Shown here: one piece after another, positions 29,294-52,047 of the stretch | How positions within the stretch are numbered: the stretch's first letter is position 1 | Layout: every line of letters begins with the position of its first letter | Made by a program: the position numbers and the translations under genes | Notes under the pieces: model-generated | The model's database searches: none | The model's input: only the letters and a program-made list of their open reading frames with translations | Told to the model about the DNA's origin: nothing | Source: a virus | Virus record (IMG/VR): IMGVR_UViG_3300024348_000001 | Span: 122,055-186,054 of that record | DNA: 64,000 nt | Strand: one strand, 5' to 3'

Positions 29294-32200
29294 TTATTCG
29301 CCAGTAGCTGCGTCAATGCTTGGATCAGGACGACCTACGCCGCTATCAAACATCACGCCACTTTGAACCGTCTTTTCCTTAAGGAAGAGTACCAGATCAC
29401 CCAGCACTTCAAACGCATTACGCAACGTATCTTCCAGTTCAGGCAAATCTTGTTTGCCGTACCTGTCCTCAAATTCTTCTTGATGCCAATAGAATAGGAA
29501 CAAGATACGACCTAGCTTGTCAAGAGCTTTCATTAAGTCGCCCAAGTACTTATCAACAAGACTGTCTTGGCGCACGGTCTTCAACATGCCACTAATCATG
29601 GCTGTGTCAAACACTTCTTTTTGCCCGGCTTGCGACGCCTGCTGTCCGACAAACATGGCTTTGGTATCAGGCATGTAGAACGGATCGTAAATCTTTGGAT
29701 CCGTCAGATTACTGTCCATGCCGGGAACCAAAGATGTGTACTCTTCAGGATACCGGGCTGGATACATGCCACGACCCACAGGTTCCTGTCCGTAGAAAGG
29801 CTCAGGGAAACCGGGAGTGTTAGGTCCGCCTGCAAGCACACTGTTGTTAAATGGCGCGGCATGCTTGACGAAATAACTTGTGGCAGAATTGTGCTTAGCA
29901 ACAGCGGATGCTTCCTTGAGCATTACGCGCGCCTGCTTCTCGGCCAAACCATGATCAGCTACGAGGTGAATCACTGCGGCCATTTTCTTAAGACGATGAT
30001 TTCCGTGCGTGGCTGATTGAATGTAGAAATCAGTACCGGTGTCTTGAATCTTAAGTGATGCCATTTTCTCGTACAGCATCAATTGGATATTTACCAAGTT
30101 ACCCAGTTCGATGGGTGAAGGATCAGACCGTGAGCCTGACTGGAAAGGCTTAGATTCGCAGCAAGGCATGAACGTAAAAGGACTATCGTCTTTGCGGCTA
30201 GTATCGTTCTTCTCTCTGACCTTAATCACCTTGTAGTCAGAGGGAATGAACATTTCCCCTGCCACCGTGCGAAGGTTAGTCCCGGGACGATTATTGATTG
30301 TGATCTTAGCGTCCCACGATTTGTAACCGTTCAAATTGTCATTCTGAGGGTGCATGCAAGTACGCGCTGCCAGATTACCGGGACGTGACAAATCAGCGTG
30401 ATCTAACCAACTGACACGATAAGCACCGTTACTCAATACTTCGGTAACTTCAAACGGGCATGTACCCGAGCCAATCTCGTGGATAGCTACATAAGTGTTG
30501 CCTACTTTGCAATCACTGATGTCGCTAAGACCGTTGACCCATTCCCTAAACACCGAGGGCAGTGGACAGTCACACGACTTTACAAACACATTGGTGCGGT
30601 GAGTGTGCAACCACGACCTTGGATCGTCTTTGCGAACAACCAATACAGTGTTTTCACGGCCACGACCTGACGCGGGATTGCTCAGTACAACCATCTCTGT
30701 AAAAGTGCCGGGCTTTTCCAATACCTCGTACACGCCACTCTCATTAGGATTCATCAGTTCCATTTTGACTTGCGTGTTGAACGCCATACTCACGTCTTGG
30801 GAATCACGCTTGTCAGTGATCAGAACGCCATCATCCAAAAGCTTCTTGCGATCATCATCTGTAGAGTTCAGCCTCTTGTTGTCGCCGTCCGTAATGGTCA
30901 CGTCGTTATCAGCTTCGGCTGATCGTTTCATCATGTCAGCAATCTTGTCCTGAATTTCATCAGGCAAAATATTCTTAAGTATGTCACCGTCAAAATCATC
31001 AGCGTCTCCCGACATCTGAATGTTTTGCATGGTGATCTTCAAAGCACCCGTTTTAATAGGATGCGTTTCACGCGCAGCAGGCAAAATGTCAAAAGACTTT
31101 TTTTCTTCCTTTTGTTTGCTGCCTGTCTTGCGACATGAATCATCAGAATATGGTTTCTTGCCGGGAACAGGTTCATATCCTTCCCAACAACGCGATTCTT
31201 TAGTCGAATCTGTAACGTCGTACGCCGTTTTAGGTTTCATCTGCGCCGACACAGGTGTTGTTGGAACCTTGTTCGCTGACGGTAATAATCCAGCAGGTTT
31301 ATTACCCGCAGCTAGTTGCGGCGCATTAGGCGTTGACCGTCCTGTGTTTTGCGCAAACATGGCTCCTGTTTGTGCCCGAGGGGTGCCCGTGCCCGTCAAC
31401 GACATAGAATTAAGATTAGAGTTTGGCTGACTCGCAACGTTTTGTCCCGACTGCGGTGTAAGCGATTGCCCGTTAAAATTCATCATTGATAACGGGAACG
31501 ATCCACCGGACGCACCCGTGTTCATCATCGGCTTATTCATGTCCACAGCGGTAGGCATATTCATCTGCCCACGCGTACGGAAACTAGAAGGATCGGCACT
31601 GGTTTTGACAATGCTCTTTGCGTCTTCCAACGCTACGCTCGCCATGTCAGCCCAGAAATTGGGTCCGTAAAACTTATCAAACCCTTCTTTGATCAAAGGA
31701 TAGGCCTGATACATTTTTTCGTACGCGGCTTTTAACAACGGAAAAGAACGCAACACGTTACGCATATCCAGATTTTCAGCCACCTTGGTATGCCGAGCAA
31801 ACAATATGTCATTACGATCGGCAACAACTGCGGCTAAGAACGGCAAGAATGGTTGTGCCCATTCCGAACAATTAAAACCAAGATCGGAACTAAACTTGGT
31901 AGCTACAGGAGGATTTGCCAAACGATTAAGGTTAGGCAGTAATCCACCTAGCTGGAATGTATTCTTGGCAGACGCTTCACCTAATACGTGAGGCTTGCGA
32001 CTAATGACGTGATTGACCCAGTTCTCTTTCATGGGAACAAACATATCTTGTTTCTTAAGATAAAGAAGTTCGTGTCCCTTGAGATCCCCGTTCAAAAAGA
32101 ATACGGGGGCGTAAAGCCATTGTTCGCCTACTTTAAAGCCAAAGATGCCTACGGCTTTAGTGTTGTCGTCGTTACGTTCGACCAACTGAAAGCCGATGAT

Positions 32201-32407
32201 AAAATCTAGAAGACGTGGAGCTTTGTCCTTTAAATAAGCGTAAGCAAGCGACGAAAATGCCTGCTCAAAACCTTCGGACTGCTCTCCACCAATCGTGGCT
32301 TGTTTCATCCAATGCTTTAAATGCTTATAGTCTGCTTTTTTATCTCGCCAGTACGTACCAACAACTGTAGCGACTTTCTCAAAGGAAAAAGAGAGTGTGC
32401 GTGACAT
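29294..32407 (-). CDS. Large putative head/inner-core protein
   Basis: 1037 aa; ordered-looking N- and C-terminal domains separated by low-complexity segments with K-x-A/S motifs. Confidence 0.5.
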   Translation of the reverse strand: MSRTLSFSFEKVATVVGTYWRDKKADYKHLKHWMKQATIGGEQSEGFEQAFSSLAYAYLKDKAPRLLDFIIGFQLVERNDDNTKAVGIFGFKVGEQWLYAPVFFLNGDLKGHELLYLKKQDMFVPMKENWVNHVISRKPHVLGEASAKNTFQLGGLLPNLNRLANPPVATKFSSDLGFNCSEWAQPFLPFLAAVVADRNDILFARHTKVAENLDMRNVLRSFPLLKAAYEKMYQAYPLIKEGFDKFYGPNFWADMASVALEDAKSIVKTSADPSSFRTRGQMNMPTAVDMNKPMMNTGASGGSFPLSMMNFNGQSLTPQSGQNVASQPNSNLNSMSLTGTGTPRAQTGAMFAQNTGRSTPNAPQLAAGNKPAGLLPSANKVPTTPVSAQMKPKTAYDVTDSTKESRCWEGYEPVPGKKPYSDDSCRKTGSKQKEEKKSFDILPAARETHPIKTGALKITMQNIQMSGDADDFDGDILKNILPDEIQDKIADMMKRSAEADNDVTITDGDNKRLNSTDDDRKKLLDDGVLITDKRDSQDVSMAFNTQVKMELMNPNESGVYEVLEKPGTFTEMVVLSNPASGRGRENTVLVVRKDDPRSWLHTHRTNVFVKSCDCPLPSVFREWVNGLSDISDCKVGNTYVAIHEIGSGTCPFEVTEVLSNGAYRVSWLDHADLSRPGNLAARTCMHPQNDNLNGYKSWDAKITINNRPGTNLRTVAGEMFIPSDYKVIKVREKNDTSRKDDSPFTFMPCCESKPFQSGSRSDPSPIELGNLVNIQLMLYEKMASLKIQDTGTDFYIQSATHGNHRLKKMAAVIHLVADHGLAEKQARVMLKEASAVAKHNSATSYFVKHAAPFNNSVLAGGPNTPGFPEPFYGQEPVGRGMYPARYPEEYTSLVPGMDSNLTDPKIYDPFYMPDTKAMFVGQQASQAGQKEVFDTAMISGMLKTVRQDSLVDKYLGDLMKALDKLGRILFLFYWHQEEFEDRYGKQDLPELEDTLRNAFEVLGDLVLFLKEKTVQSGVMFDSGVGRPDPSIDAATGE

Positions 32408-32489: not shown

Positions 32490-34034
32490 TTATTGCCCCG
32501 CAAGGTCTAAACCTGCGGCTGTCAGTGCGCGAATAATGTCAGGGCTGTTTTTAAGTCGCAACATTAACGGTGACGTCGGGCTAATGTCTAATTTATCGGC
32601 TGCTATCAATTTACTTAATTCTTTTTTAAGTTGCTGCGGATCTTCTAATACAAATTGATTAAGAGTAGCATCTGTTTCAGGTATCACTTTGGCGGCAATC
32701 ATTGCTTTGTAAAGCCTATACCGGTCTGTTTGATCGTTTAGATTTGCTGGAGGTAAGAGGTTGGGTTCTGTTTTCTTTAAATCCGCAGGACGCAATTGCG
32801 ATTCAAGCTCTTTTTTAAGGTATTGCGCTCGTATCGTATCAAGTTGTTGCTCGCTAGCTCCCTGTGCCTGTGCCCGCGCATATTCAGGCGTTCGCTGTAC
32901 CTCGGCATCTGAATAAGCAGCATTTAGCGCTTCTTGTTGCTTAGGATGTAATTGCATAAAGTGGTCGGGGTTTTTATCTATTAATAATTGTGCATGCGCT
33001 TGTATTTTTGCAGGATCATTATTCAACAATACGCCTTGGGTAATTTTTCGTAGCGTCATTTGATTTTGAGCCGCAGGCGTACTCTGATTCGTAATTGTAG
33101 GATCTTCTCGCATAAAATAATCTTGCCATGTTCTTGTTACTTTTGGCGGCGCGTATCCCTTTACGCCATCAGGTAAAAATGCTGGATCCGTTTTAGTAAT
33201 CGGCGCAGTACCGTGCGTTTGCGCTTCTAATGTTTGTCGAATCTTTTCTTTTTGGATTGCATCGGGTGTCAAATTTCTAACAGCCGCTGTATTAGCTAAG
33301 TGCCCTATAGGAGAACTTGCCAAATCAAGCGAAGACCAAAATTGTTTGCGCAACTGATTTGGAACTTCACCAAGCGCTTGCAACATTGTCATTTTTCCGC
33401 CCGGATACCGTTTATTGAACTCTGGATCCATTTGCGGAAATACACCACGTAATGCTGGAATTGTTCTATTCTCGTAATCATGTTGCATTTGTTGTGTTGT
33501 ACGCGGGACCGCCGTTTCCGTTGCCGCATCAATTACCATTCCAGTCACCGGGTGCTTAAAAGGAAATGCCAGTACATTACCCGCAAATCCTACTCCTTTG
33601 CCTATAAGATTTTTACTTAAACGATCAGGCAATCGTATGCCGGGTAACATATCGGGTTCAATAGTTCCGCCCATTAATGCCCCTGCTACGCCGACACCGT
33701 GCGCAAGTCTACCGGCGTCGCGCTGCAATGATGATGCTGGAGATAAAGGCGCCTGAAAAGTTGACTCACTTTTTGGCGTACGCGTTTGATCTGCGAACGT
33801 GCGTATATGTTCAGCGTATGCCGGTGATCCTATTTGCGCTTCAGCTCCGTTGTATAACTTACGGTCTGCTTGAGACATTCCCACAGGTGTAGGCGTTGGT
33901 TTAGGTGCTTTTGGTGCAGGGGGAACGTACGGCAAGCTTGGTCCCGAAATATACGGCGGAATCTTATTAGACGTAGGATCAGCGGCCATCTTTACCCTAG
34001 CCGCTAACTTTCCAAGCTCTGATGCCGTAATCAT
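32490..34034 (-). CDS. Leader-tagged cargo protein 1
   Basis: Begins MITASELGKLAARVKMA; Pro-rich body of unknown family. Confidence 0.7.
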   Translation of the reverse strand: MITASELGKLAARVKMAADPTSNKIPPYISGPSLPYVPPAPKAPKPTPTPVGMSQADRKLYNGAEAQIGSPAYAEHIRTFADQTRTPKSESTFQAPLSPASSLQRDAGRLAHGVGVAGALMGGTIEPDMLPGIRLPDRLSKNLIGKGVGFAGNVLAFPFKHPVTGMVIDAATETAVPRTTQQMQHDYENRTIPALRGVFPQMDPEFNKRYPGGKMTMLQALGEVPNQLRKQFWSSLDLASSPIGHLANTAAVRNLTPDAIQKEKIRQTLEAQTHGTAPITKTDPAFLPDGVKGYAPPKVTRTWQDYFMREDPTITNQSTPAAQNQMTLRKITQGVLLNNDPAKIQAHAQLLIDKNPDHFMQLHPKQQEALNAAYSDAEVQRTPEYARAQAQGASEQQLDTIRAQYLKKELESQLRPADLKKTEPNLLPPANLNDQTDRYRLYKAMIAAKVIPETDATLNQFVLEDPQQLKKELSKLIAADKLDISPTSPLMLRLKNSPDIIRALTAAGLDLAGQ

Positions 34035-34056
34035 GGGTGATTCCTTAAATGCTTAT
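33971..34056 (-). repeat. RBS+leader DNA cassette, copy A
   Basis: 84/86 identical to 42753..42838. Confidence 0.95.
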
Positions 34057-34077
34057 ATTGTTTAAAACTTATTTTAT

Positions 34078-35517
34078 TTATGGAATGGCTTTTCCGTCCG
34101 CATCGTATTTGTTTTGACGCGGGGGTGAAGACGTTGTTGGTTTGTTAATATTGCCCGATGGAATGGCTTTTCCGTCCGCATCGTATTTCCTTTGAGACGG
34201 AGGTGAAGACGTTGTTCGTTTTCCAACAACGCCGGAATACGCCGGCGCCGACCTTTTAGTTTCTTCTCCCCACGCTCCGGGCGGAAGTAAATTATTTAAC
34301 ATGTTTAATGGCGCACTTACGGGTGTTCCCGCTGTTGCCAAAGCAGTTCCTAAAAGAGCAACTCGAGGATTTTGCATAATTCCGTTATAAGCATCTGCTA
34401 GAGCATCTTGCTGCTCAAATTTGCCGTGTTGCACATCTATCATTTTTTGTATTTGCGCGCGGTATTTGGGGTCATTCATGACAGCACTCATTTGAGTAGA
34501 TCCGCCAAGATGTCCACGTCGCCGCAAATCTTCAACAAACGCAGAATACGGCATTCCCATTATTTCGCCCTTTGGCCATTGTCCTGTCGCCTTGTGATAA
34601 GCATCCGCCACGTGAGCACTTTCACTTAATACAGCTGGTAATTCAGCTCCAAATATTGTGCGCGGAACTTCGTCTCGCCGCATTCGTGTTGGCACACTTT
34701 GCGTCGTATGCACGTGTTCGTGCAATCGAGCAGAGTCAGGACCAACCGAAGGATAATTTTTATTTAAAAGTTTAATGGCCGAATTATCTGGCGGATTTTG
34801 CCACGCTGAATCTGGCGGCATGTTCATAATTTGTGCGCTTTCTACGTTGGCGCCGATGGGACCCATTCTAACACCGGGATCCGTAAAATATTCATCGTAA
34901 TAAAACGGTCTTGATGTGCGTTGTTTAAACGCTATGTCTTTCATGTTTTTTAATGTTTTTTCAAATTCTTGTTTTTGCGGTGCTTTTGACGGATCACGGT
35001 ACAGTGCGTTAGCCGCAGAATACGTTTCGTGTCGTTCATCCCCGGGATGGAAACTAAATGCTTGTTGCGGTAAATATTCCGATAGCGGCCCTAACAACGA
35101 AGGCGGCACATTAAACCCAAACGGACGATGATTACTATAATGTTTTGCTAGCAATGTTTGATATGTGCGCATGTCCATCTTAGGACCATCATTTCCTGTC
35201 AAATCTTTGCCTGCGTACGGAAAATCTTTCTGGGGCACAAATTTAGCCGCACTACCGCGAAGCGTAGGATCTCCGTAAGCTTTATTTTCGCTAGGATTAA
35301 ATAAACTTCCAAATATTGGGGCATTTGTGTCAACAGGCTCTCCTATCGGTTTAATGCGTCCTGTCCTTGAACTGGTAGGAAATTTAGGTAAAAGCTCAGA
35401 TTCAAAATCACTAGAAAATTCCGGTATTGGCTTTGGTGTAGCTGCGCCAATAGACGCACTTGCTCCAGCCATCTTTACCCTAGCTGCTAACCGTCCAAGC
35501 TCGGATGCCGTAAGCAT
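34078..35517 (-). CDS. Leader-tagged cargo protein 2, possible zincin metallopeptidase
   Basis: Begins MLTASELGRLAARVKMA; LHEHVH (HExxH) followed by ELPAVLSE; C-terminal 26-aa duplication (TTSSPP...KYDADGKAIP). Confidence 0.65.
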   Translation of the reverse strand: MLTASELGRLAARVKMAGASASIGAATPKPIPEFSSDFESELLPKFPTSSRTGRIKPIGEPVDTNAPIFGSLFNPSENKAYGDPTLRGSAAKFVPQKDFPYAGKDLTGNDGPKMDMRTYQTLLAKHYSNHRPFGFNVPPSLLGPLSEYLPQQAFSFHPGDERHETYSAANALYRDPSKAPQKQEFEKTLKNMKDIAFKQRTSRPFYYDEYFTDPGVRMGPIGANVESAQIMNMPPDSAWQNPPDNSAIKLLNKNYPSVGPDSARLHEHVHTTQSVPTRMRRDEVPRTIFGAELPAVLSESAHVADAYHKATGQWPKGEIMGMPYSAFVEDLRRRGHLGGSTQMSAVMNDPKYRAQIQKMIDVQHGKFEQQDALADAYNGIMQNPRVALLGTALATAGTPVSAPLNMLNNLLPPGAWGEETKRSAPAYSGVVGKRTTSSPPSQRKYDADGKAIPSGNINKPTTSSPPRQNKYDADGKAIP

Positions 35518-35519
35518 AA

Positions 35520-38500
35520 TTACTCTACCTCCTCATCGAGTAACCCCAGATCGGGACTGTACTGGGTTGTCTGCTGCCTTAAAATTTTGTTCGTTTCCAG
35601 TAATTCTTTCAAACGCGCTGCTCGTAATTCTTCTTCTGTAGGTAACGCCGTCTGTGCTACAGAAATTGGTAATTCAGCAGGCTCTGGCGGTTCATAACGG
35701 CGTGCCGCAGCATTCTCAATGTCACGAATTGTTGTTACAGGCGTTGCCTCTCTGATCAAAGAAGCAATATCTGCGGCACGCTTATTACGAGCTCTGGCAA
35801 TACCGTCGGCAATACTATAAACGCTTTTCTTTTCTACCTTTTCAAGTTTGGTGTAGTACTTAAGATCTTCCACCAAATGATCTTTGGAAATGTCCGCAGC
35901 AATGGCAGGATTAGTGGTGTGCTCGGATTCCGTCTTAACACCCTTAGCCATTTCCTTCTTGGGAAAATCAGAGACGTTGTACTTGTCCCCAATGCCCCCC
36001 GGAAGAATGTCATCGGCGTGTTTGTACTGGTTTTTAAAATTGTCTAACAACGAATCAAGATTGTCTGCGCGCGTATTGTGTGTAAGCGTACCGGGCATGT
36101 TTCCAAATCTGCTCATATCTGACTTGTTGGAGTCATACAATTTCCGACCTAACTCAGAACGATATGCTTCAACTTCAGGCGTCCACGGGTTTCCTTTGGC
36201 TTCTACTCTCTGCTTAGTTCTATCTAGTCTTTGTTGCAAAAGCTCTGTTAATGGTGTCGTGACCAAAACACGATGCGGGTATTGCGCTAATTGTTGTTTA
36301 CGCAACGCAGCTAATTGCGTGCCTTCCACAATGGCACCGTCTTTTGCCGAATTAATCGTGTCGAGTGCCATACGTCGAGCTGCATCAAGATAACGCCTAC
36401 GTTCAATCGATCCGGGCGTCATGTGTTTGTTTTCAGGGTCATTCTTAAATATCTGTTTGAGTGCAGGATGATCATCAATACTCGTGACAGGTAAACCCAA
36501 AGCATCACTAAGTTGTTTTGCCACCGTGGATTTGCCTGCGCCACTATGTCCGCTAATTAAAATAACTTTGGATGGATCAGTTTCTGCGCATTTAACAAAA
36601 TACAGGTCGTCACTAGCGTGTTTATCCGTACCAGTACTATTACTTAAAAATCCTCTGTCTGTTCCAAGCATGCTTAAAAGTTTTTGTTTGTGCTCCGGAG
36701 CCATGTCTTTCATGGCTTCATCTTCATCCCTAACACGATATTCTGGGGCCATCGCAGAATACATGGGACGTGTGCCTAAAAGTTGTTCTGCTGCACGACT
36801 GGGGACTGTGCCTGTTAAACCCTTATCTGTAACTGCAAGCCTAAACCGATCAGCCATGTTTTGTTTAAACGTAGCATCGTCGTGCATCGCTGAATCGGAC
36901 GGATCGTACATATTGGACATGCGGTACGCCAAGTGATGTATGGCGTTTAACCTAGCAGCATCTGCGTTCGACAAATTAACTGATGTCATTTGCTGGGGTA
37001 CGGCCAAAGGCGCAAACGTTACAGGTTTGCCTGTTTTTGCTTGGATCCGCGTGGCTAGTTCATCAAAAACATTTTTACGTTGGGCTTCATCGCCGTTAAA
37101 CGCTAATTCGACATTACCTGTTTCTTCGTTGTTGACGCCTAAACCCGATATGCCTTTTTCGTCTAACAAAGCGTGGTACAGCTTTCGCAGACCTACACCC
37201 TGAACACTGTCGCCATTTGCTGTGTACACTTCCGCAAACTTAATGTGTTGCTGAGGCAGAATGTCGTCATTGGCAACTTTGTTGTTAGATTTGTCACCAT
37301 GCCGTTTCAACACAATCCCTGATGTCTGCAACGCGTCCCAAAGGTTTTTAATTTCCTCGACGTTTATAGGCTTCACGGCTTTGCGTGCAATTCTCTCAGT
37401 AGGCATTAACCGAGGATCTTCAGCAAAGTCTGTGGAAGGTAAATGATGTAAGAACCCGCTTTTGCCTTTATAAATCTTTTCAAAGGCACCGGGGTATCGT
37501 TCTTCTAAAACATAAGGTTCGTTGTTAGTACTCCCCAAGGACAAATCAGCATCTGTCCACGGAGCCATAAAACTCAAAGCTAACTCACGATTAGGTGTTC
37601 CAAAAACCGCAGCTTCGTTGTTAATCACACGGCTAGGGCGTGGTTCAATGTTTTTTAATCTTAAAGAAGACCCGTGGTACAACGCGTCACTAGATAACTT
37701 CTCAGTGTCGGTGCTAGGAGTCATAGGCGTGGCTACGGGCGTATTCAAATCAGGCTTTACGCCAGTCTTAGGTTGCTGGATCAAACCAACTCTACCAAAG
37801 TCAACAGTTCTTGCTAATCCGGGTACGAAGCTTGTGCCTGTAGCCGAACTCGTGGAACCTCTGTGTGTAGCATCCAACAAACTACTCTTAAGCCCCGAAC
37901 CATACATCCTCGTCATCCAGTCGGGGTCATGATGCAAATTGTACATCGCCCTAACCATCTCTGGCTGAAACGGCGCAGGCTTGTCGTGAACCGTAACGTC
38001 CTTAACACCAAAGTACGTCATGTCCTTGAGCATGCTTGGCTTTACCTGCGTGCCAATAGAATAATGCAACACAGGTTTCTCTAAATACTTATTCAAAGCT
38101 CTACTGGGTTCTAATGTCTGAAAACCTTCACGGGGTTTGTATCCATGCTCCAACGTTGAATAAGGAATCACGTCATCGGGTACGTGATCTCCGTATTCCT
38201 CTGTCATTCTCACGTGATCTATCAAACCACGACCAATAAGCTCAATGTTCCTTCTGTGGGAACGAAGCCCCATAGATCCCATAGATTCCTTAAAAGCCTT
38301 AACAAAATACTTGCGGCCTTCGCCTATGCCCTTATGTTGCGTAATGATGGAAGGATTGGGCATGCCTTCGCTAATAACATCTCCGGCTTCAACCTCATCT
38401 CCCGGTTTAACGTTAATCTCAAAACCATGACCTACGTACTGGGGTTTGTCATTAATAAATACGTACTTACCGCCAGCAGGAGCGTCTTCTATTTTCTGAA

Positions 38501-39629
38501 CTTTACCGTCTACAAGCGTGTGTGCAGCTCCACCTTTAAATGTCTTGGGTACTTGAATCAATTGGTTGATGTATTGGAAACCACCTACCGTCTTTTCTTG
38601 TCCCGCAACACCACCCGAGTGCTTTGATCCTAATTGTCCTTGGCTGATAGGTTCTGCAATAGCTTGGGCTGCTGTCATGCCCACCATCTCTCCACGCCCC
38701 GGAAGCGTACCTCTTTCCCTAACACCTACGTCACGAGCATAAACACCGCCATCAGGACTGCCACCCGTCATTGGACTGCGCACCAAGATACGATCGAACT
38801 TACGTGCCTTAAGGTCTTTCAGAATCTTAGGCGTTAATACCGTGTTGCGCTTGTAACCACCAAAGTCAAACGCTAACAATGCGCCTTCATTGTCCATGTC
38901 GTCGGTGTCTACGGGTAATCCTCTAATGCCTAAATCTTGACGTGGATCATCTTGATCAACAACGGCAAGCCTGTGTGCTACTTGATTAAGTTGTTTGCCG
39001 AAGAAGCCTGCATCCGCCGTAGCAAACTTAGTTGCAATAACACCCTTACGCGCGCCATATGTACCAGCCCAATACTCGGCAGGAGTTAACCCTTGAGAAT
39101 AGCTTTTAAGTACAGGCACAGGAATGATGTCACCCCTATGATCTTCGTACAACAAGTCGGCACCGCGTAATGATGCCAAATTCATCTTGTTGCCACGAGA
39201 GCCCGACATGATCTGCATAGCGATTGGGTTTTTTTCAGCCAAACTATCTGTGTACACGTCATCCATTAGTTTTTGCTGATATCCGCCAACAGTTTTAATC
39301 ACAAGTTCGTTACGTTGCTTGTCAGTCAGATAAGGGTTAGCCAGCAACTTTTTAACTTTGCCTCTGATTTCGGCCAGAGTTGCTTTAGCTCCGGCTGTTT
39401 GCGTCAATGCGCCTAAACCAAAGCTAAAGCCACCTGTTTCCGTTGCAACCTGTCGTCCGATGTTAGCCAGTTTCTGACTTACCTCTACGTATTTGTCAGG
39501 ATGCTTATCGGCTAATTCTCTTAGCAGTGTCTGCAACGAAGACTTGTTAAAAACCGTATTGCGCCCACGCATGCTTTCAGGCAATGCATCTTCAATCATC
39601 AATTTGCCGACGGTGCTGCGCGTGATCAC
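35520..39629 (-). CDS. RNA polymerase beta' C-terminal subunit fused to ART-like, acylphosphatase-like, P-loop kinase and DUF5661-like domains
   Basis: Bridge helix GARKGVIATKFATADAGFFGKQL and trigger loop AAQAIAEPISQGQLGSKHSGG. After the core come YHGSS, VQGVGLR, GHSGAGKS and ESEHT...DHLVEDLKYYTKL. Confidence 0.85.
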   Translation of the reverse strand: MITRSTVGKLMIEDALPESMRGRNTVFNKSSLQTLLRELADKHPDKYVEVSQKLANIGRQVATETGGFSFGLGALTQTAGAKATLAEIRGKVKKLLANPYLTDKQRNELVIKTVGGYQQKLMDDVYTDSLAEKNPIAMQIMSGSRGNKMNLASLRGADLLYEDHRGDIIPVPVLKSYSQGLTPAEYWAGTYGARKGVIATKFATADAGFFGKQLNQVAHRLAVVDQDDPRQDLGIRGLPVDTDDMDNEGALLAFDFGGYKRNTVLTPKILKDLKARKFDRILVRSPMTGGSPDGGVYARDVGVRERGTLPGRGEMVGMTAAQAIAEPISQGQLGSKHSGGVAGQEKTVGGFQYINQLIQVPKTFKGGAAHTLVDGKVQKIEDAPAGGKYVFINDKPQYVGHGFEINVKPGDEVEAGDVISEGMPNPSIITQHKGIGEGRKYFVKAFKESMGSMGLRSHRRNIELIGRGLIDHVRMTEEYGDHVPDDVIPYSTLEHGYKPREGFQTLEPSRALNKYLEKPVLHYSIGTQVKPSMLKDMTYFGVKDVTVHDKPAPFQPEMVRAMYNLHHDPDWMTRMYGSGLKSSLLDATHRGSTSSATGTSFVPGLARTVDFGRVGLIQQPKTGVKPDLNTPVATPMTPSTDTEKLSSDALYHGSSLRLKNIEPRPSRVINNEAAVFGTPNRELALSFMAPWTDADLSLGSTNNEPYVLEERYPGAFEKIYKGKSGFLHHLPSTDFAEDPRLMPTERIARKAVKPINVEEIKNLWDALQTSGIVLKRHGDKSNNKVANDDILPQQHIKFAEVYTANGDSVQGVGLRKLYHALLDEKGISGLGVNNEETGNVELAFNGDEAQRKNVFDELATRIQAKTGKPVTFAPLAVPQQMTSVNLSNADAARLNAIHHLAYRMSNMYDPSDSAMHDDATFKQNMADRFRLAVTDKGLTGTVPSRAAEQLLGTRPMYSAMAPEYRVRDEDEAMKDMAPEHKQKLLSMLGTDRGFLSNSTGTDKHASDDLYFVKCAETDPSKVILISGHSGAGKSTVAKQLSDALGLPVTSIDDHPALKQIFKNDPENKHMTPGSIERRRYLDAARRMALDTINSAKDGAIVEGTQLAALRKQQLAQYPHRVLVTTPLTELLQQRLDRTKQRVEAKGNPWTPEVEAYRSELGRKLYDSNKSDMSRFGNMPGTLTHNTRADNLDSLLDNFKNQYKHADDILPGGIGDKYNVSDFPKKEMAKGVKTESEHTTNPAIAADISKDHLVEDLKYYTKLEKVEKKSVYSIADGIARARNKRAADIASLIREATPVTTIRDIENAAARRYEPPEPAELPISVAQTALPTEEELRAARLKELLETNKILRQQTTQYSPDLGLLDEEVE

Positions 39630-39642
39630 AGGGAACTCCCGG

Positions 39643-40077
39643 TTATAACACCCTGATGACGCCTTTTTTACCCATATCCAACTGCCCCGTATGCATGTTG
39701 AACAGCCACAACGTCAAACGGGTTCGAGCATGCGCGTCAATAACAGCTCTGACACGCACCAAGTACCGTTCTTCGTCCGCAGCACTCATCAATAATAACA
39801 CGACAGGTGTACGTTTCGTCATGGCGCCATAATACAAGGCCTGACCAATACCTTCCGCCCACTTATGCGCCCAATCTACTTCAATCGCCTCAGTTTGCGT
39901 CAAAATGTCTACCCGCGCTTTATCCGGTAATAGATACTCAGGCATGCCGTTTAAAACTTTGGCAATTAACGCAGCAATTTGCACTTCACCCTTAGGAAGC
40001 ACGACTGTTCGAGAACGTGTAGGCCAGAAAAAAGCTACCCACAGCCTTACACAGAAATCACGGATGAACGCAAACAT
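39643..40077 (-). CDS. PD-(D/E)xK nuclease-like protein
   Basis: EYLLPDKARVDILT...AIEVDWAHKWAEGIGQALYY. Confidence 0.55.
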   Translation of the reverse strand: MFAFIRDFCVRLWVAFFWPTRSRTVVLPKGEVQIAALIAKVLNGMPEYLLPDKARVDILTQTEAIEVDWAHKWAEGIGQALYYGAMTKRTPVVLLLMSAADEERYLVRVRAVIDAHARTRLTLWLFNMHTGQLDMGKKGVIRVL

Positions 40078-40144
40078 GGCTGACTCCTAAAAAAAACAGC
40101 CGACGTGTTTTACCACATCGGCTGCCCCGAGAACATCCGTGTTG

Positions 40145-40543
40145 TCAGGTACCACGGCCGCTACGGTAGGAGCTTCGCCTACCTCGTCCTGATCGACCGG
40201 TGGAAGAAGTGTCAGTGTCCTTTGCTGGGACAGGAACAGTTTCATCCAAAGCGGTCAGCGGATCCGCAACTTGCGCAAAAGCATTTTGCACAGGGGTACT
40301 ATAGGAAACAAGAATCTCATCGTCTAGAGAAGGAAGCGTGGGTTTTGCCGCAATTGGAGGCAATTCAGCAATCGCAGGTGGGATTGCACTGATGCTAGGA
40401 ATCGCAACAGTTGGAGGCAACGCGCAAGCCGAAACAATAGCAGGCGTCGTTACAGGTTTATTAATTCTTGGTGCGCTGCGAACCGGTGTTTTTGCTACAA
40501 CGCGCGTACCCATCCAAATCACAGGAGAAAATTCACTAGCCAC
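40145..40543 (-). CDS. Low-complexity hypothetical protein
   Basis: 132 aa Pro/Ala-rich with basic tail; GAGG RBS. Confidence 0.45.
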   Translation of the reverse strand: MASEFSPVIWMGTRVVAKTPVRSAPRINKPVTTPAIVSACALPPTVAIPSISAIPPAIAELPPIAAKPTLPSLDDEILVSYSTPVQNAFAQVADPLTALDETVPVPAKDTDTSSTGRSGRGRRSSYRSGRGT

Positions 40544-40555
40544 GGTAAATCCTCA

Positions 40556-40822
40556 TCAAGGGGCCGAAATTAACCGAGCACCTGTTGGGGGCTCAGGAAG
40601 TTGTAACGTGTCACAAAGCGTAGTCTCGTGGATGCCTAGTTTTGCCAATACTTCGTTGAAATCGTCATCACCGACATGCGACACGAGCTGACATTTATCC
40701 ATTCCATACTCTGCGGCGACAGCAATAATAGTGTTGTTGTCCTGCCGAATAACAATCTGATTGATATTCAAGCGAATAGGCGCAGAACCAATCCCGGAAT
40801 CAGAAATAATTTCAACAAACAC
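40556..40822 (-). CDS. Hypothetical protein
   Basis: 88 aa; AAGGAG RBS. Confidence 0.55.
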   Translation of the reverse strand: MFVEIISDSGIGSAPIRLNINQIVIRQDNNTIIAVAAEYGMDKCQLVSHVGDDDFNEVLAKLGIHETTLCDTLQLPEPPTGARLISAP

Positions 40823-40832
40823 AAATAACTCC

Positions 40833-41618
40833 TTAGCGACGACCTCGTACAGCAGCGGCTACCCGAGTGGCTCTGTCGTTCGCTTGAAACAACGGCAACG
40901 TCATAGCTTGCCCTGCGGCTTCAGCCTGTTTGATGGTAGGACTGATAAACATGTCACGTACTGTTTGAGCACCTGACTGCATATCACGGCCAGCCTTTTC
41001 GCCACCCGGAGTACCTGCCGGGGTAATGCCTGTAATTCCTTTAATGGCAGAAATGGCGCCACCACCGCTATTACCGGCACCACTGGTAGCGTCACCGCCG
41101 TTAGCCATGGTCATAAGTTTATCTGGCGTAGCGACAAGATCCTGCGCAGGAATCTTGACGTTAAGCGCATCAGCAAGTTTAGCCAACATGTGCTTAATTT
41201 GCATCAATTCTACGTTGACGTCGATCTTAGGTTTCAAGCCACCGCCGCCACCCGAAGCAGCACCAGCACCACCAGCACCCATGGCTTTACGGACTTCGTC
41301 AGCCACAATCTGCTGAATCATGCCGGGATCCATAGGCGAAGGTGGGGGCGGAGCAGGTGGCGCTGGAGGAGCACCACCCATCATCGATGGATCCATAGGT
41401 GGTGCGCCGCCCATCATTGAAGGATCCATAGGCGGAGCACCGCCCATCATTGAAGGATCCATAGGCGGAGCACCACCCATCATTGAAGGATCCATAGGCG
41501 GAGCGCCGCCGGGAGGGGCACCACCGGGAGGAGCACCACCCATAGAAGGGTCTCCTGACGGCACAAAAGCCACCTTATTCAAAACATCCCGCGCCACTTT
41601 GATAAGACTGTAATTCAT
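40833..41618 (-). CDS. Gly/Pro/Met repeat protein with K-x-A motifs
   Basis: Tandem GGAPPMDPSMM repeats; IKVAR, NKVAF, IKQAE; GGAGG RBS. Confidence 0.7.
   Translation of the reverse strand: MNYSLIKVARDVLNKVAFVPSGDPSMGGAPPGGAPPGGAPPMDPSMMGGAPPMDPSMMGGAPPMDPSMMGGAPPMDPSMMGGAPPAPPAPPPPSPMDPGMIQQIVADEVRKAMGAGGAGAASGGGGGLKPKIDVNVELMQIKHMLAKLADALNVKIPAQDLVATPDKLMTMANGGDATSGAGNSGGGAISAIKGITGITPAGTPGGEKAGRDMQSGAQTVRDMFISPTIKQAEAAGQAMTLPLFQANDRATRVAAAVRGRR
41371..41550 (-). repeat. 33-nt tandem repeat (GGAPPMDPSMM x4) plus GGAPP units
   Basis: cccatcattgaaggatccataggcggagca repeated. Confidence 0.9.
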
Positions 41619-41709
41619 GCGTAATCCTCCAAGTGTTCAAGTTAGCATAAACATTTAACGTAAGCCAGAGAAAGCAATTATTCACCGCAAGCGTCAGATA
41701 AAAAACTAA

Positions 41710-42816
41710 TTAAGGCCACAAAGGTGCCGCTGGCGGTATTGCAAAACCAGCAGAGTCAAATTTTTTGTTTTGCATTATTCGGGAATACAGTCTTTCGCCC
41801 GCATCGTCTTCTTCGGAACCAATTGCGGTAGGGTTGTGATAAATGGGTCGCCTGCGCCACGCAGCCGTTTCTTGCGCGGTATCAAACAAATCTTCTTTTT
41901 TCGGTAGTGGCGCTCGCATTTGCGGGCCACTACTGCCAAAATCTTTTGGCGGAATGTGTCCGCGCAAATACGGATTATGTCCAAGTACGCCGGCCTCGCT
42001 TCCGTCAAGTGCTCTATCCAAATTAGCTAAATGTTGCGGCATTAAAAACAAAGGCGTTTTTGGGTCACCGTGAATTAAACCATCTCTAGCAAATTGATGC
42101 GGATCAAAACGACGATCGCCGTTTTCAACTTTCAACGCATTTGCAGGTAAAGATTTTGGTTGTTTTGCATTTGGATTATTTTGTTGAAATCGTAAATTGT
42201 TGCTTGAATGATCTAACATGGCAAGTCCGACATTACCGGGCAAGAAAAAACTTGGAAATCCTTGTTTGTTTTCACCAAATTCATCGTAATCTTGCACTAA
42301 ATCTGGATGATTGCGGGGACGAATTTTACCTTGCGCAAGCGCATCTTGTATATCTTGTTTTGTTGGCTGTCCTTTTTGTCGTTGCATTTTATCGCTTGCG
42401 TCTTGCAACATACGAATTGGGTCTCTTTCACCCGGAAATGCCTCAAACTTCTGGCGAAGACCGCCTGCATTGCGCAATACCGGAACACCTTTTTCTAAGG
42501 TTGAACCGTACAGCATATCTTTTAACGTTTTTTGCGGTGTTGCTGAAAATGCTGGTTGTTTTACAGATTGCAATTGCGTCAATGCTGCCGCAGGCATTTT
42601 TGGCAAAACCACGTTAGGTTTTTGCGGGGCATAATCCCAATTTTCTTTACCACCACCCGGACCTGACTTTGGATTAGGAGCATACGGCGCCACAGAAGGT
42701 TTAGGTGCCGACGACCCCGGCACCGAAGGCATTACGGTATCAGATTTACGAAACGTAGGATCAGCAGCCATCTTTACCCTAGCCGCTAACTTTCCAAGCT
42801 CTGATGCTGTAATCAT
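41710..42816 (-). CDS. Leader-tagged cargo protein 3
   Basis: Begins MITASELGKLAARVKMAADPT, the same as 32490..34034, then diverges. Confidence 0.7.
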   Translation of the reverse strand: MITASELGKLAARVKMAADPTFRKSDTVMPSVPGSSAPKPSVAPYAPNPKSGPGGGKENWDYAPQKPNVVLPKMPAAALTQLQSVKQPAFSATPQKTLKDMLYGSTLEKGVPVLRNAGGLRQKFEAFPGERDPIRMLQDASDKMQRQKGQPTKQDIQDALAQGKIRPRNHPDLVQDYDEFGENKQGFPSFFLPGNVGLAMLDHSSNNLRFQQNNPNAKQPKSLPANALKVENGDRRFDPHQFARDGLIHGDPKTPLFLMPQHLANLDRALDGSEAGVLGHNPYLRGHIPPKDFGSSGPQMRAPLPKKEDLFDTAQETAAWRRRPIYHNPTAIGSEEDDAGERLYSRIMQNKKFDSAGFAIPPAAPLWP

Positions 42817-42840
42817 GGGTGATTCCTTAAATGCTTATTG
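42753..42840 (-). repeat. RBS+leader DNA cassette, copy B
   Basis: Matches copy A (84/86) and copy C (64/65). Confidence 0.95.
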
Positions 42841-43845
42841 CAAGTTAGGGTTTAGTCGCTGCTTGGTGTAAATTTTACGCACCGCAGGGTCAGTTTTTGG
42901 GTTTGCCATTTCTGTGTGAAGCAGTTTTTCACCCTCACGTGTTCGTCCTGTAGTTGGATTTACTGTAAGTGGAAAATATGGATTATCTACAGAAGCCGTG
43001 TTAAACGCGTTCATAACACTCCATGCGTCACTTTTATTTTGCCGCTCAAACGAAGGCCTGTTTCCCCAAAATTTTCTATCGTTAAACTCATCGGTACTTG
43101 CACGCGCAGGTATTGGTGGTTGTTGCGGATATCGCCATGCGTTATATGCATTGTTAACATTAGTTACAATTTTATTCGGCGTTTTGAAACCCGCTAGTAT
43201 ACTAATTCCTGCTTGCGGTCCGGGTGGCAACGCTTCAAAACGATCTATACGGTTGTCTAAACGAATTCTTGGTCTAAACGTTTGAAGGCTAGTGGGCGTT
43301 TGTGCTGCGAAATCATCAGGTTCTAGGCCTTCAACGCGACCGCCTTGCGATTTAGACACACCTGAATACATCTCAGGTTTATACGGAATATTTGAAGGCG
43401 TATAACCGCTTTGTACTGCGTCACGCGGTGTGAACTCAGGCATTTGATTTTTTTGCAAAAAGTCAGAATAATGTGATTCATTAAATGGGTGTAAGTTCAA
43501 ATCTAATTTACGATTAGCTGGATCATTTTCATATTGATGCTTTGCCGTTCTAAATGCATTGGCGTCGTGCACGTTTCTACGTTGAGAAATTGCTTGGGCA
43601 AGTTGATGCTCTGGCGCAGAATTTAATAAATCATTGTAAAAACCTTTACCTCTATATGCAGACGAATAATCTTTTGCTGCTGCCACCGCAGGTTGCGCTA
43701 CTGCTTGCATTGCGCCAAACGGCGAAATCATTGTTTTCATTGCTTTACCAGCTGTAACCGCAGCACCTGCAATAGGTGGTAATTTTTGTTCTTCAGCTAT
43801 CTTCACCCTAGCTGCTAACTTTCCAAGCTCTGATGCTGTAATCAT
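42835..43845 (-). CDS. Leader-tagged cargo protein 4
   Basis: Begins MITASELGKLAARVKIA. Confidence 0.7.
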   Translation of the reverse strand: MITASELGKLAARVKIAEEQKLPPIAGAAVTAGKAMKTMISPFGAMQAVAQPAVAAAKDYSSAYRGKGFYNDLLNSAPEHQLAQAISQRRNVHDANAFRTAKHQYENDPANRKLDLNLHPFNESHYSDFLQKNQMPEFTPRDAVQSGYTPSNIPYKPEMYSGVSKSQGGRVEGLEPDDFAAQTPTSLQTFRPRIRLDNRIDRFEALPPGPQAGISILAGFKTPNKIVTNVNNAYNAWRYPQQPPIPARASTDEFNDRKFWGNRPSFERQNKSDAWSVMNAFNTASVDNPYFPLTVNPTTGRTREGEKLLHTEMANPKTDPAVRKIYTKQRLNPNLQ

Positions 43846-43869
43846 GGGTGATTCCTTAAATGCTTATTG
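43805..43869 (-). repeat. RBS+leader DNA cassette, copy C
   Basis: 64/65 identical to 42776..42840. Confidence 0.95.
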
Positions 43870-46800
43870 AATGATTTCTACAGGATCGTCTGCTTGGATA
43901 TCTCCACGCTTATATGCGGCTATGGCATCTTGTCTTGACGCAAACACACGAGGTCTCCGTGCTGACGTTTGACTCGACGCATGGTACAAGCCTCCAATAT
44001 ACTCGTTAACAGGCCCATGCACGACAGATTTGAAGTCGGCCGGGTGAAATAAGTTCTTAGAAGGCATCATTCTGTCGTAGGCTTCTCTAACGGCAGCTTC
44101 GCTTGTAGGCACGTGAAACTGCATTGCGTCTCCGTCAAAGTCTGCATTGAATCCTTTTACAATCAACGGAGAAATCTGCATAACATCGCCACTGACTAAT
44201 CGTGGTTTAAATGCCATGATGCCAAACCTGTGCAACACGGGCGCACGGTTGATAAACACAGGCCGCGTTTCCATTTCTTTTAACAATGCGTCTTTAGCCA
44301 ATGCCGTCTTATCCTTAACGTGCCTTAACGCTTCACCCATGGGCATACCCAGACGCTTCAATCGCCTAATCAAAAATTTGTTGTAAACTTCAAACGCTTT
44401 ACCTTCAGGAATGCCTACCGTATCCATATCGTAATCGGGGTTAGGCGTAATTACAGCTCGCCCTACGTTGTCCACAGTCGATGACAGCAATTTACGCTGT
44501 ACCGTCCCAAACTTAGGCGAGTTACCGAAAATTGATTTAAGAATGCCTGAAACATTCTTTTCTTGAAGCTTAGGGTGAATAGGATCGCCAAGCCCTGTGA
44601 TTGCTTTAAAAGAATCGTAAATGGCCAACCTTTCCGACCCCGTATCGTTAAGGCCTACCATGTCCTTCATAGACTTAAAATTAGCCGTAGCGTCCAGCAA
44701 TTCTTTGTATAAGTAATTAGGGTCTGCTACCAAAGGAATACCCGAACTGCCCATGACGGTAACAGGTCTAAAGATAGGCGGAAGCACAGGTACAGCGTCA
44801 AGAATCCAATCTTTAGGATGCAGCCCGTATTTCTCTGCACCTTTGAGGTAACCTAACCTGCGAATGGCATTGTCGCGTGCTGCTTTGTTGCTGCCGTTGA
44901 CTTGCGCCCTAGCTACGTCGATCTCACGTTTGACGTTTAGTTCCGCCAAGGCTTTAGCTATTGCTTGAGGCCCTGTGCCATATCTGCCAAGGATATGCTC
45001 TCCGCCAATCGTGTCTCTAAGTTGTTGCTGCGTTAGACCCAACAAACGTCTAGCGGGTTCTTCCATCACAGGATTAAGAGTTGGCTCGGGTAATTCAATC
45101 TTGGCCCATTGTCTGCCGTTGTGTCCTCCAGTTAACTTTGGATCAAACAGACCGCCTGCAATAGGCTCCATGTTTTTATCAAAGCGAACTGTTTCTCCTG
45201 ACCTAACAACACGATCTGCCGTTAATTGTTTAACGTCACTATTGGTCATGGCCATTACATTGGTTTCTTGGCCATTTGATACAACGTTAATACCTGCGGC
45301 TTTAAGTGAGTTTACAAACTTTTCGTAAATCAAAGGCACCTTGGGTTCAATCGGCGTGTGTCCCTGCATGAACTGTGTCCAATACTCTTCGTTCTTTTGC
45401 CCGCGAATAAGCCCTGCGTCTCGAATGGTTTCTGTAGCACCGTGAGACAACAACGCATTAACGTCCAACATGGAAATACGCTTGGACCCTGATTCTCCAC
45501 CCTTTGCAGGAGCATCTTCTGACGAGTATGCGCCTGACCCACGACCTTGCCCTTTTGATTCCGCCGTGTGATGCAACTTCATGTAGAAACGATTACCAGT
45601 AGCAACGTTATTGACGTATTGATTTCTCGTCACGTCCATAATGTTTTCTGTGCCCTTAAGATTGTATTTCTTAAGTTGCTGTTCCGCCCATTCTGTCATG
45701 TCCTCGATGTCTTCAAAGTCGGGTACAGCAATAGATTTACCTGTTAGCTCTGCGATCTTGCCTAGCATCAATTCCACTTTTTGGGCTGGATTGGTTCTTG
45801 TCACAATACCGAGGGGATTTAGCAATACCTCAAATGGTCGGCCTTGGGAATCTGTAGGCATTTGATGGTCAGGAACAATAGCTGCGATAACGCCTTTGTC
45901 GCCATATCTACCACTCATCTTGTCACCCACTTGCGTAGGGACAATTGATTTAACCAACACCACAGGGCCATTCTTGCTTTGTACGATATCTGTTACTACG
46001 CCCGGATCATGGTGTTTCCACAATACAGACACATCTCCAAACGCCCGCGCACCTTGTTTGTGAATCTTGTTCTGTGGAGATTCCTTTTCCTGCGCACCTA
46101 AGATCAAAGGTTGGTCATACGTTACAGTCTGTCCAACCTTGATAATGCCGTCGTCGTCCATCGTATCCAATAATTGCTTATCGTATTTCTGTGGAAACAA
46201 GGATATGTAATTCCTTTTCCCCATTTTATGTTGATCTGTTACTTCAAGTTCGTGTTGATACATATGCTCTGAAGACATGCGCTTAGCCATGCCTTCGGAA
46301 ATGACGTTAGCGTCTTCAAAGTTGTAACCTTTCCATGGCATATAGGCAGTGCGAGCATTCAACCCCAGTGCCATGGCTCCGTCTTTATCCGTAAAGTTAG
46401 ACCTGACGATTGTTTGTCCTTGTTTGAACATATCTCCGGGCTTCAGCGCCGTAGACTGATGCAACATTGTTTTGCGATTAAATGGATGGTTCTGAAACAG
46501 CTCAATTTCGTCTTTGCTTCCATCTGCGTAGCGTAATTTAACAATACCGTCACTTATGTCTGTAATCTGTCCATCTTGGGCCGCTCTAACAGCACCCATG
46601 TGGACGCCAAACTCGTGTTCAAAGTCTTTAGTGCCTTTTGTGCCGGGAAGAGCACCCCGCACAAAAGGAGCTTCTCCGTCTTTCAATGGCAACGCTTGTG
46701 TCAACATACGACTGGCCATAGCCATACGTTGTGCTTTGACCGCAGACTTAATAGGAATCAGATTACCTAGTGCTGAGAATGCATCTTCAAACGCTGGAAG

Positions 46801-50850: not shown

Positions 50851-52029
50851 TTATAACAACTCAATGGCTGGAGTCTTGGGTGGTTTGTCTGTAGGAACAG
50901 GCGCAGGCATTGTTTTAATCCCGTTGCCTTTAGGACCTTTGCCTCGAATAGCCGGCATTAACTCAAAAGGCGGCGGTACTGGGCCTTTAGGTGCGTTACC
51001 GAACCTTGGATCCATTTTGTCCCCGGCCGGATTAGCCGGCATATTAGGTCTAATAGGAAGCCTTGGATTCATTTTGTCACCGGCAGGATTAACCGGCATA
51101 TTAGGTCTAATAGGAAGCCTTGGATCCATCTGACCACCGCCGTTAAATCCCGGCATCACCACAGCCCCACCCATGCCTCGTTGCGGAAGAAATTGATTTC
51201 TACCTCCATTGAGTCCCGGCATTACTACGGGACCACCCATACCTCGCTGTGGTTGTTTGAAAAAAGGATTATTGCCGCCTAAGCTAAATAACCACGACGG
51301 CAAATCAGACCAACCCTCAGCTTGTTTAGTGTGATGCATTTGTGCGGATAATCTTCCCAAGTCGGCCGCAGTGTGCATATTTAATTCGCCAGATTCTTTT
51401 TCAATTTTTGGCTTTTTAAAATACTTTTCGGTTATCACGTCAAGAGGATGTGTCCCGGCAGGAAATGCTTCGTCCCGTTCCATATAATCAGGTGTTTTTA
51501 AACGTAACAATTCAGCCAACCCTGCCCGTGCTTTGCGTGGGTGTTCCATAGAATAGTAATTTGGCATTGAGCTTTCATTTGTATCATCAATTTGCTTTGC
51601 GGCCATGAGCCTTTTTATAGCTTCGTCTGCGGAATACATACTTGAAGGATCAGCATACTGTTCGCCATAAAACTTAACATCGGCTCCGCGTGCTTTTGCT
51701 GCATCTGCCAATGTTTTAGTCATGTCGATAATGCGCTTTCGGCTCCGATGCAAAGGCCTGTCGTCGTAAGCAGGTCCACCATCCAACCAACGATCATATT
51801 CGTATCCAGTGTCACTTCCGCCATACGCCGACTTCTCAACATTTCGTTTTGTTTTATTTGTTTCTTTAAGCCAAGCATGCATGTCATTGCGTATGTCGTG
51901 AAACTCTTCAGGAATGTCCTTAGTCATTTTTTTGTATTCAGCTGCGTCACTTTTAGCTTTGCGCTTTGGCTCAGTGTCCTTAGCTTGCTTTTGTGCGGTA
52001 AGCATTCCCAATTCAGCAGCAGTAAACAT
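50851..52029 (-). CDS. Leader-tagged cargo protein 5 with a second, internal leader
   Basis: MFTAAELGMLTAQKQA at the start; MHTAADLGRLSAQMHHTKQA internally; C-terminal 19-aa repeats (MxPRLPIRPNMPxNPAGDK). Confidence 0.7.
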   Translation of the reverse strand: MFTAAELGMLTAQKQAKDTEPKRKAKSDAAEYKKMTKDIPEEFHDIRNDMHAWLKETNKTKRNVEKSAYGGSDTGYEYDRWLDGGPAYDDRPLHRSRKRIIDMTKTLADAAKARGADVKFYGEQYADPSSMYSADEAIKRLMAAKQIDDTNESSMPNYYSMEHPRKARAGLAELLRLKTPDYMERDEAFPAGTHPLDVITEKYFKKPKIEKESGELNMHTAADLGRLSAQMHHTKQAEGWSDLPSWLFSLGGNNPFFKQPQRGMGGPVVMPGLNGGRNQFLPQRGMGGAVVMPGFNGGGQMDPRLPIRPNMPVNPAGDKMNPRLPIRPNMPANPAGDKMDPRFGNAPKGPVPPPFELMPAIRGKGPKGNGIKTMPAPVPTDKPPKTPAIELL

Positions 52030-52047
52030 GTTTAACCCCTTAAGCAC

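Follow-up and report, generated by a model that had tools for sequence, protein, structure and literature searches.

A repeated gene head in an uncultured Arash-like phage probably joins expression signals to a capsid-targeting-like tag whose coding DNA serves as a recombination site

The final 64 kb of a 186-kb IMG/VR virus record (IMGVR_UViG_3300024348_000001), in which nearly all genes lie on the minus strand, carries a short DNA cassette repeated at the heads of several genes; the whole 64,000-nucleotide (nt) stretch that was analyzed is referred to here as the window. An initial annotation, made from the sequence alone, had described this cassette as a stop codon, ribosome-binding site, and leader placed in front of cargo genes and had proposed that it might be a recombination handle for cargo shuffling. 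The phage is an uncultured, ~186-kb member of the Arash-like group. We consider it probable, with moderate confidence, that the shared gene head combines expression signals with a load-and-trim tag resembling the capsid-targeting sequence (CTS) of T4 and that the coding DNA of this tag doubles as a recombination site. In this model, the tag would bring otherwise unrelated proteins, most of them basic and proline-rich, into the prohead along with the virion RNA polymerase and would then be cut off at a K-x-A motif by the head-maturation protease. Because the head is the only sequence common to these genes, homologous recombination and gene conversion would act there, keeping the copies heading genes A, B, C, and D nearly identical as DNA and allowing cargo bodies to be replaced, added, or lost between related phages. 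The primary reason for the cassette is probably a functional N-terminal tag together with its expression signals.

A repeat search of the window recovered a 93-nt family with four members, at 33964-34056, 42746-42838 (95%), 43775-43867 (80%), and 35447-35539 (63%), which correspond to the following cassette copies.

33964-34056, minus strand: copy A, with the box TAAGCATTTAAGG at 34043-34055, the Shine-Dalgarno (SD) sequence AAGGA, the ATG at 34034, and tag codons 1-22
42746-42838, minus strand: copy B, with the box (whose TAA terminates gene C), the SD, the ATG at 42816, and tag codons
43775-43867, minus strand: copy C, with the box (whose TAA terminates the RNA polymerase gene), the SD, the ATG at 43845, and tag codons 1-17
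35467-35517, minus strand: looser copy D, with tag codons only (MLTASELGRLAARVKMA), its own GAGGAGG SD, and no box

A 53-nt core (TAAGCATTTAAGGAATCACCC-ATG-...TTAGC) was found at 34003-34055, 42785-42837, and 43814-43866 with 1, 0, and 0 mismatches, respectively, versus 0 matches in 100 shuffles, which bears out the original description of near-identity at three sites and a looser fourth. The minus-strand sequence of the unit is TAAGCATTTAAGGAATCACCC-ATG-ATT-ACR-GCA-TCA-GAG-CTT-GGA-AAG-TTA-GCR-GCT-AGG-GTR-AAG-ATR-GC and consists of a TAAGYAYTTA box, an AAGGA ribosome-binding site, and 17 to 22 codons of an N-terminal tag. The repeat was also correctly said to include the CAA-TAA end of the upstream gene in copies B and C, where the TAA of the box doubles as that gene's stop codon. 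DNA identity reaches to about codon 17 for cassette C and to codon 22 for A versus B, and synonymous sites are identical among the near-identical copies.

The upstream part of the cassette is a general expression signal that is also used by untagged genes, a regulatory component that the initial annotation had missed. The box TAAGYRYTTAARGG stands 5' of the tagged genes that start at 54528 and 52029 as well as of the untagged gene 55727-56824, and gene 29294-32407 has a box-like copy within its 5' part. A perfect TAAGTACTTA in the same SD context precedes the untagged RNA polymerase beta'-C gene in the relatives L013, L015, and L037. The TAAGYAYTTA box is probably a phage promoter or operator. 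Sigma-70 promoters and terminators were considered as well and rejected, since no sigma-70-like promoter or terminator was found at any cassette.

The tag itself has the form M-φ-T-A-x-[E/D]-L-G-x-[L/F]-x-A, with K-x-A following after a spacer of 1 to 8 residues. It heads at least nine genes in the window (10 copies including an internal one), and the motif has 12 matches in the whole genome. These genes are listed here with their lengths in amino acids (aa) and, for A to D, with their state in the close relatives L012 and L014.

32490-34034, minus strand: cargo gene A, tagged, 514 aa; 96-97% identical in L012 and L014
34078-35517, minus strand: cargo gene D, tagged, 479 aa; a 31%-identical allele in L012
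41710-42816, minus strand: cargo gene B, tagged, 368 aa; only a scar in L014
42835-43845, minus strand: cargo gene C, tagged, 336 aa; 51% identical in L014
50851-52029, minus strand: tagged gene, 392 aa (MFTAAELGMLTAQKQA), with the box TAAGTGCTTAAGG upstream and an internal second tag at 51378
53641-54195, minus strand: tagged gene, 184 aa (MITAHELGQLAAKYA)
54211-54528, minus strand: tagged DUF6321 gene, 105 aa, with the box TAAGCACTTAAGG upstream
54550-55716, minus strand: tagged gene, 388 aa (MITASELGMLCARHRIKSA)
56869-57411, minus strand: tagged gene, 180 aa (MYTASDLGRF...KTA), with a glycine-zipper/C19orf12-like body

The cassette had been thought to be limited to 33971-43869, but the last five of these genes and the internal copy at 51378 lie outside that interval and use other codons. 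Across the family, Thr is encoded by ACA, ACT, or ACG; Ser by TCA, TCC, or AGT; Leu by CTT, TTA, CTC, or TTG; and Gly by GGA, GGC, or GGT. That the motif is kept across at least nine genes while its codons vary strongly argues, at the level of sequence, that the tag is conserved and selected as a peptide, which contradicts the earlier suggestion that the identity reflected duplication or conversion "rather than protein selection." The four near-identical copies A to D are a young subfamily of this larger peptide-tag family. The internal copy (MHTAADLGRLSAQ…KQA) lies at residue 218 of the 50851-52029 protein and may mark fused genes or an internal start.

The distribution of K-x-A may reflect a processing site. 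The motif occurs within residues 12-26 in all 10 window tags and in 35 of 36 tags when relatives are included, the sole exception reading K-x-S, compared to 14 of 174 untagged open reading frames (ORFs) (8%). It is also overrepresented in the head-module proteins as a whole (window 18956-57411; 122 observed versus 82.4 expected, z = 5.1), whereas the window's tail portion (z = 0.7) and the remainder of the genome (z = 1.4) show no enrichment. K-x-A is a candidate cleavage code of a putative head protease. In the head module, E or a hydrophobic residue often stands before it.

The cassettes are placed around a split multisubunit RNA polymerase.

43864-48360, minus strand: virion-type RNA polymerase of 1498 aa in which beta and beta'-N are fused; flanks cassette C and is conserved
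35520-39629, minus strand: RNA polymerase beta'-C of 1369 aa, carrying extra domains; flanks tag D and is conserved

The nearest isolated phages, at ~29% aa identity, are Salmonella phage Arash and Vibrio phages D69, D148, and D181. The Arash homologs of the window's RNA polymerase and capsid protein are gp206, gp216, and gp226; the product of 19696-20634 corresponds to the major capsid protein of Arash, and those of 23067-24572 and 29294-32407 correspond to structural proteins of this phage. Given the RNA polymerase and these structural homologs, the cassettes lie in a head/virion RNA polymerase module. Spectrum counts from purified Arash virions place the two RNA polymerase proteins first and fifth (PMC10585845).

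The proteins behind the tag are diverse. They span 105 to 594 aa, 9 of 10 are basic (isoelectric points of 9.2 to 10.7), and most are proline-rich. When the first 25 aa were removed before comparison, the tagged proteins fell into at least eight unlinked classes. The cargo is thus unrelated across these classes, but this is only partly true of A, B, and C, which form a single class with the 54550-55716 protein, joined through mosaic intermediates. Cargos A to D had no PHROGs or Pfam match, and cargo A had no usable ESM Atlas match. The DUF6321 family comprises at least 7,988 members, mostly of ~86 aa and without the tag, and a related tag (MTAIELLAKLAA...KQA) is present on some DUF6321 proteins of other lineages; given that these bodies are mostly untagged and that related tags occur elsewhere, the tag is portable and broader than this lineage. 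A degenerate scan of IMG/VR for the exact tag gave no match. A looser scan found several copies per contig only in the near relative IMGVR_UViG_3300032310_000320, the remaining matches being single and chance-like. The motif had no match in five distant relatives (three IMG/VR genomes among L006-L009, plus Arash and D69).

We then compared the window with close relatives, which are metagenome contigs found by anchoring on beta'-C. Amino acid identities to the window were as follows (L014, then L012).

RNA polymerase beta + beta'-N: 99.3%; not covered
Gene C: 50.8%; not covered
Gene B: absent; not covered
Beta'-C: 93.8%; 98.5%
Gene D: 97.1%; 30.8%
Gene A: 96.3%; 97.3%
Portal-like gene 29294-32407: 99.1%; 89.6% (with an indel)
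Downstream head genes: not covered; 97-99.8%

The gene content between cassettes, whose comparison in close relatives had been suggested at the outset, did differ: L012 departs from the window in the body of D alone, between neighbors of 97-99% identity, and C and B differ in L014. In the D region, DNA homology between L012 and the window ends at 35468 (D tag codon 17) and restarts at 34056, the first base of cassette A. For L014, nucleotide identity to the window is 98-100% up to 43901, 95% across the cassette, and 52-72% over the body of C. Additions were seen as well. In L013, L015, and L037, one or two tag genes (MTTAFELGC...) and the box are inserted between a 144-aa gene and beta'-C, which only 13 nt separate in the window, whereas L035 has no tag gene after beta'-C. 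The near relative L011 carries eight tag genes within 11 kb, in one of which a B-type head is followed by the body of 54550-55716, at a different genome position. The distant relatives L006-L009 (IMG/VR; ~60% identical in beta'-C) lack the four tagged genes A to D at both sites. In these alignments, then, cargo bodies have been replaced, lost, or added among relatives with breakpoints in or at the cassette, and it is this comparison that supports the recombination part of our interpretation.

Some smaller features of these loci were also recorded. L015:215-580 holds two tandem tag genes (MTTAFELG…), each after a copy of the same 28-nt unit, which includes the stop codon of the preceding gene; these units represent a parallel "stop-RBS-leader" cassette in another lineage. 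Gene D has a 78-nt tandem duplication at its 3' end (34080-34235; repeat ...KYDADGKAIP), and gene D of L014 is 26 aa shorter, a difference that would correspond in size to one 78-nt unit.

The cassette copies also appear to evolve in concert. The box in all three window cassettes reads TAAGCAtTTAAGG, while in all three L014 cassettes, a dead scar included, it reads TAAGCAaTTAAGG; the window thus has TAAGCAtTT where L014 has TAAGCAaTT. The paralogous B and C cassettes of the window are more similar to each other (96%) than the orthologous C cassettes of the window and L014 are (92%). In L012, the D tag is chimeric, with a D-type 5' end and an A-type 3' end, and the changes in the A tag are clustered in its first 33 nt, the remainder of the gene being 98% identical. 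These box and tag patterns fit gene conversion among cassettes. The recent duplication or gene conversion originally proposed is supported by both the identical synonymous sites and the genome-specific box variant common to all three copies.

Mosaic proteins extend this picture beyond the window. A search with B recovered proteins of 565 to 594 aa that share its first ~84 residues at 82-89% identity and then continue into other bodies, and residues 26-84 of B are joined to at least five different tails in metagenome proteins. Protein P0009 combines the B head with an A-like body, P0010 combines the B head with a C-like body, and P0011 and P0012 combine the tag with the tail of B. Protein P0003 had no relative in IMG/VR.

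Several observations weigh against the interpretation of the gene head as a loading tag and recombination site. At the position of B, L014 retains a scar (L014:6211-6285) consisting of an intact box, the 5' end of the tag with ATG changed to GTA, and the last codons of B (PLWP-stop). This structure implies that B was lost by deletion inside the gene rather than by crossover or exchange between cassettes. The deletion that had been predicted from the repeats (42776-43804) was not seen, since L014 misses B and not C. The idea of a recombination handle stands insofar as cargo is replaced, lost, or added at the cassette and the tag heads many bodies, but not as an account of this loss. Some mosaic joints lie at about residue 84, beyond the tag, so the tag is not the sole breakpoint. 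The genome-specific box variant could alternatively reflect coevolution with a DNA-binding factor that recognizes the box. Loading and cleavage of the tagged proteins we infer by analogy. In the search for a head protease, the candidate protease-scaffold protein 23067-24572 (the Arash gp222 homolog) gave an unusable AlphaFold2 model of its conserved N-terminal domain (mean predicted local distance difference test score of 35), and a PDB profile search with that domain was empty. Finally, tag-like motifs with K-x-A occur at genome positions 19470-19829 and 21719-24028, ~100 kb before the window and outside the head module. In the same distant part of the genome, a 769-aa ORF with a proline-rich region has two tandem tag-like motifs near its start.

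Other readings of the repeated head were weighed against these data. One is suggested by a gene located among the tagged genes, which encodes a possible tag-processing enzyme.

52048-52494, minus strand: stand-alone Peptidase_C39, 148 aa (PF03412, E = 4e-13)

The tag could be a double-glycine-type leader that is recognized, and perhaps cut, by this peptidase, with the tagged family representing substrates borrowed from bacteriocin-type or ribosomally synthesized and posttranslationally modified peptide (RiPP)-type systems, with or without head loading. The catalytic residues Q11, C17, and H94 do not vary, most members also have the Asp of "HDV," and a profile of the family matched LahT150 (6MPZ) best in the PDB, with PCAT1 and ComA also found (best E = 2e-9); a single-sequence phmmer search of the PDB was empty, so these matches came with the profile. 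The published pattern for C39 leader recognition is φ(-12)-x3-E(-8)-L(-7)-x2-φ(-4), with a minimal motif of 13 residues (PMC6363468). If the tag were cut after residue 13, and in this register only, it would read φ(-12)-x3-[E/D](-8)-L(-7)-x2-[L/F](-4), equal to that pattern. The tag and C39 also co-occur in the genome of the window and in L011, the two genomes of the lineage in which the C39 region was seen, and the five distant relatives without the tag lack C39 too, although this co-occurrence amounts to a single evolutionary event. However, there is no Gly-Gly, Gly-Ala, or Gly-Ser at positions -2/-1 (residues 12-13), where -2 is Ala and -1 is variable, and no canonical double-glycine leader was found in the genome. 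Furthermore, the related tag on DUF6321 proteins belongs to other lineages, and pairs of C39 and metallophosphoesterase genes recur in unrelated viral contigs (L058-L062) that show no such tag family. On balance, we regard this leader hypothesis as rather unlikely. A hybrid of the two ideas, in which a diverged bacteriocin/RiPP-type leader and its C39 were co-opted to process shuffling virion or host takeover proteins while the tag DNA also served as a recombination site, strikes us as unlikely. With regard to the C39 locus itself, the metallophosphoesterase followed by the stand-alone C39 (window 52048-53259) recurs at 33-42% identity in those contigs, which are smaller, and may be a two-gene module with its own function; an in-frame TAA separates 52048-52494 from 50851-52047.

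The tagged genes might instead be ordinary young paralogs, recent duplicates whose 5' ends are undiverged or under purifying selection, with no role for the cassette in exchange. The partial homology linking A, B, C, and the 54550-55716 gene favors this idea, as does the 60% identity that A and B still share up to about residue 52. Yet it leaves unexplained why bodies of 31% and 51% identity stand between flanks of 97-99% with breakpoints at the cassette, why all copies within each genome have a common box variant, and why at least eight unrelated bodies follow one tag, and we judge it decidedly unlikely. Conservation at the RNA or DNA level, in which a translation initiation region or mRNA structure is kept and the peptide is incidental, draws on the fact that the box and SD are clearly noncoding signals that are present before untagged genes too. 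The wider tag family, however, keeps the peptide while changing the codons, and folding of the four cassette RNAs did not surpass that of shuffled sequence (z = -0.74 to +0.77), such that RNA structure was rejected as the basis of the cassette and the idea as a whole appears highly improbable. We give hardly any credence to the repeats being an assembly artifact, for which nothing spoke, given that L012 and L014, assembled independently from other samples, have cassettes at the same positions.

Additional variation was observed in neighboring genes. The beta'-C gene varies in length: L014 encodes 1010 aa compared to 1369 aa in the window (~1 kb less; window 36616-37678), and distant relatives encode 654 to 1208 aa. 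The window's beta'-C carries AAA_18/AAA_33, DUF5661, and acylphosphatase-like segments. Gene 40833-41618, which encodes a conserved 261-aa protein, contains 33-nt tandem repeats at 41317-41529 that encode GGAPP/MDPSMM-type units, and its N terminus (…LNKVAFVPSGDP) has K-x-A/G at the same place in distant relatives. The portal-like gene 29294-32407 has an indel relative to L012 at 31300-31605 (1037 aa versus 963 aa).

The cassette is a variant of two known kinds of element, the T4 CTS and the PeSL cassette, in a new phage lineage. The T4 internal proteins Ip1, Ip2, and Ip3 carry a CTS (PMC3012670, PMC12373910). As in T4, a short N-terminal peptide is found here on otherwise dissimilar proteins, the genes occupy variable loci that differ among close relatives in a head gene context, and the tag ends in a motif that is a candidate maturation protease site. 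The systems differ in that the candidate cut site is K-x-A here and L/I-x-E in T4, that the lineage is Arash-like with a fused multisubunit virion RNA polymerase, and that the cargos are larger (105-594 aa) and proline-rich. The reference for the T4 CTS is reportedly Repoila et al. 1994. Compared by eye with the T4 tag, MKTYQEFIAE, the consensus M-φ-T-A-x-E/D-L-G-x-L-x-A has nothing in common, and the tag is an analog, not a homolog, of the T4 CTS.

PeSL cassettes bring about the shuffling of modules in T4-type phages (PMC2839356, PMC4122927). They resemble the unit described here in being small repeated elements with expression signals before variable ORFs and in having indel and replacement breakpoints inside the unit. 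In contrast, PeSLs are noncoding and consist of sigma-70 early promoters and stem-loop terminators, whereas the unit in the window lacks a sigma-70 match, terminator, or stem-loop, has another type of box, and reaches 50 to 65 nt into coding sequence. Relative to the C39/double-glycine leaders of LahT150, ComA, and PCAT1 (PMC6363468), the likeness lies in the C39 homolog with catalytic residues among the tagged genes and, in one register, in the φ-x3-E-L-x2-φ spacing of the tag. The differences are the missing Gly-Gly site, the lack of a fused or adjacent ABC exporter domain, and the nature of the candidate substrates, which are 100- to 600-aa proteins in a phage head module. Two features set this case apart: evidence at the nucleotide level for cassette-bounded exchange of cargo and the neighboring C39 peptidase.

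Phage proteins injected with the DNA are a main source of counterdefense functions. Among the internal proteins of T4, every one that has been tested to date blocks a single restriction enzyme (PMC12373910). A recognizable tag and DNA head would allow such cargo to be listed from sequence in poorly known large freshwater phages with a virion RNA polymerase. The T4 tag has already been used for loading foreign proteins into capsids, and the short tag plus cleavage motif described here could serve the same end. For the phages themselves, the relatives show, down to the nucleotide, how DNA encoding a functional peptide tag can also act as a homology patch that moves cargo between phages.

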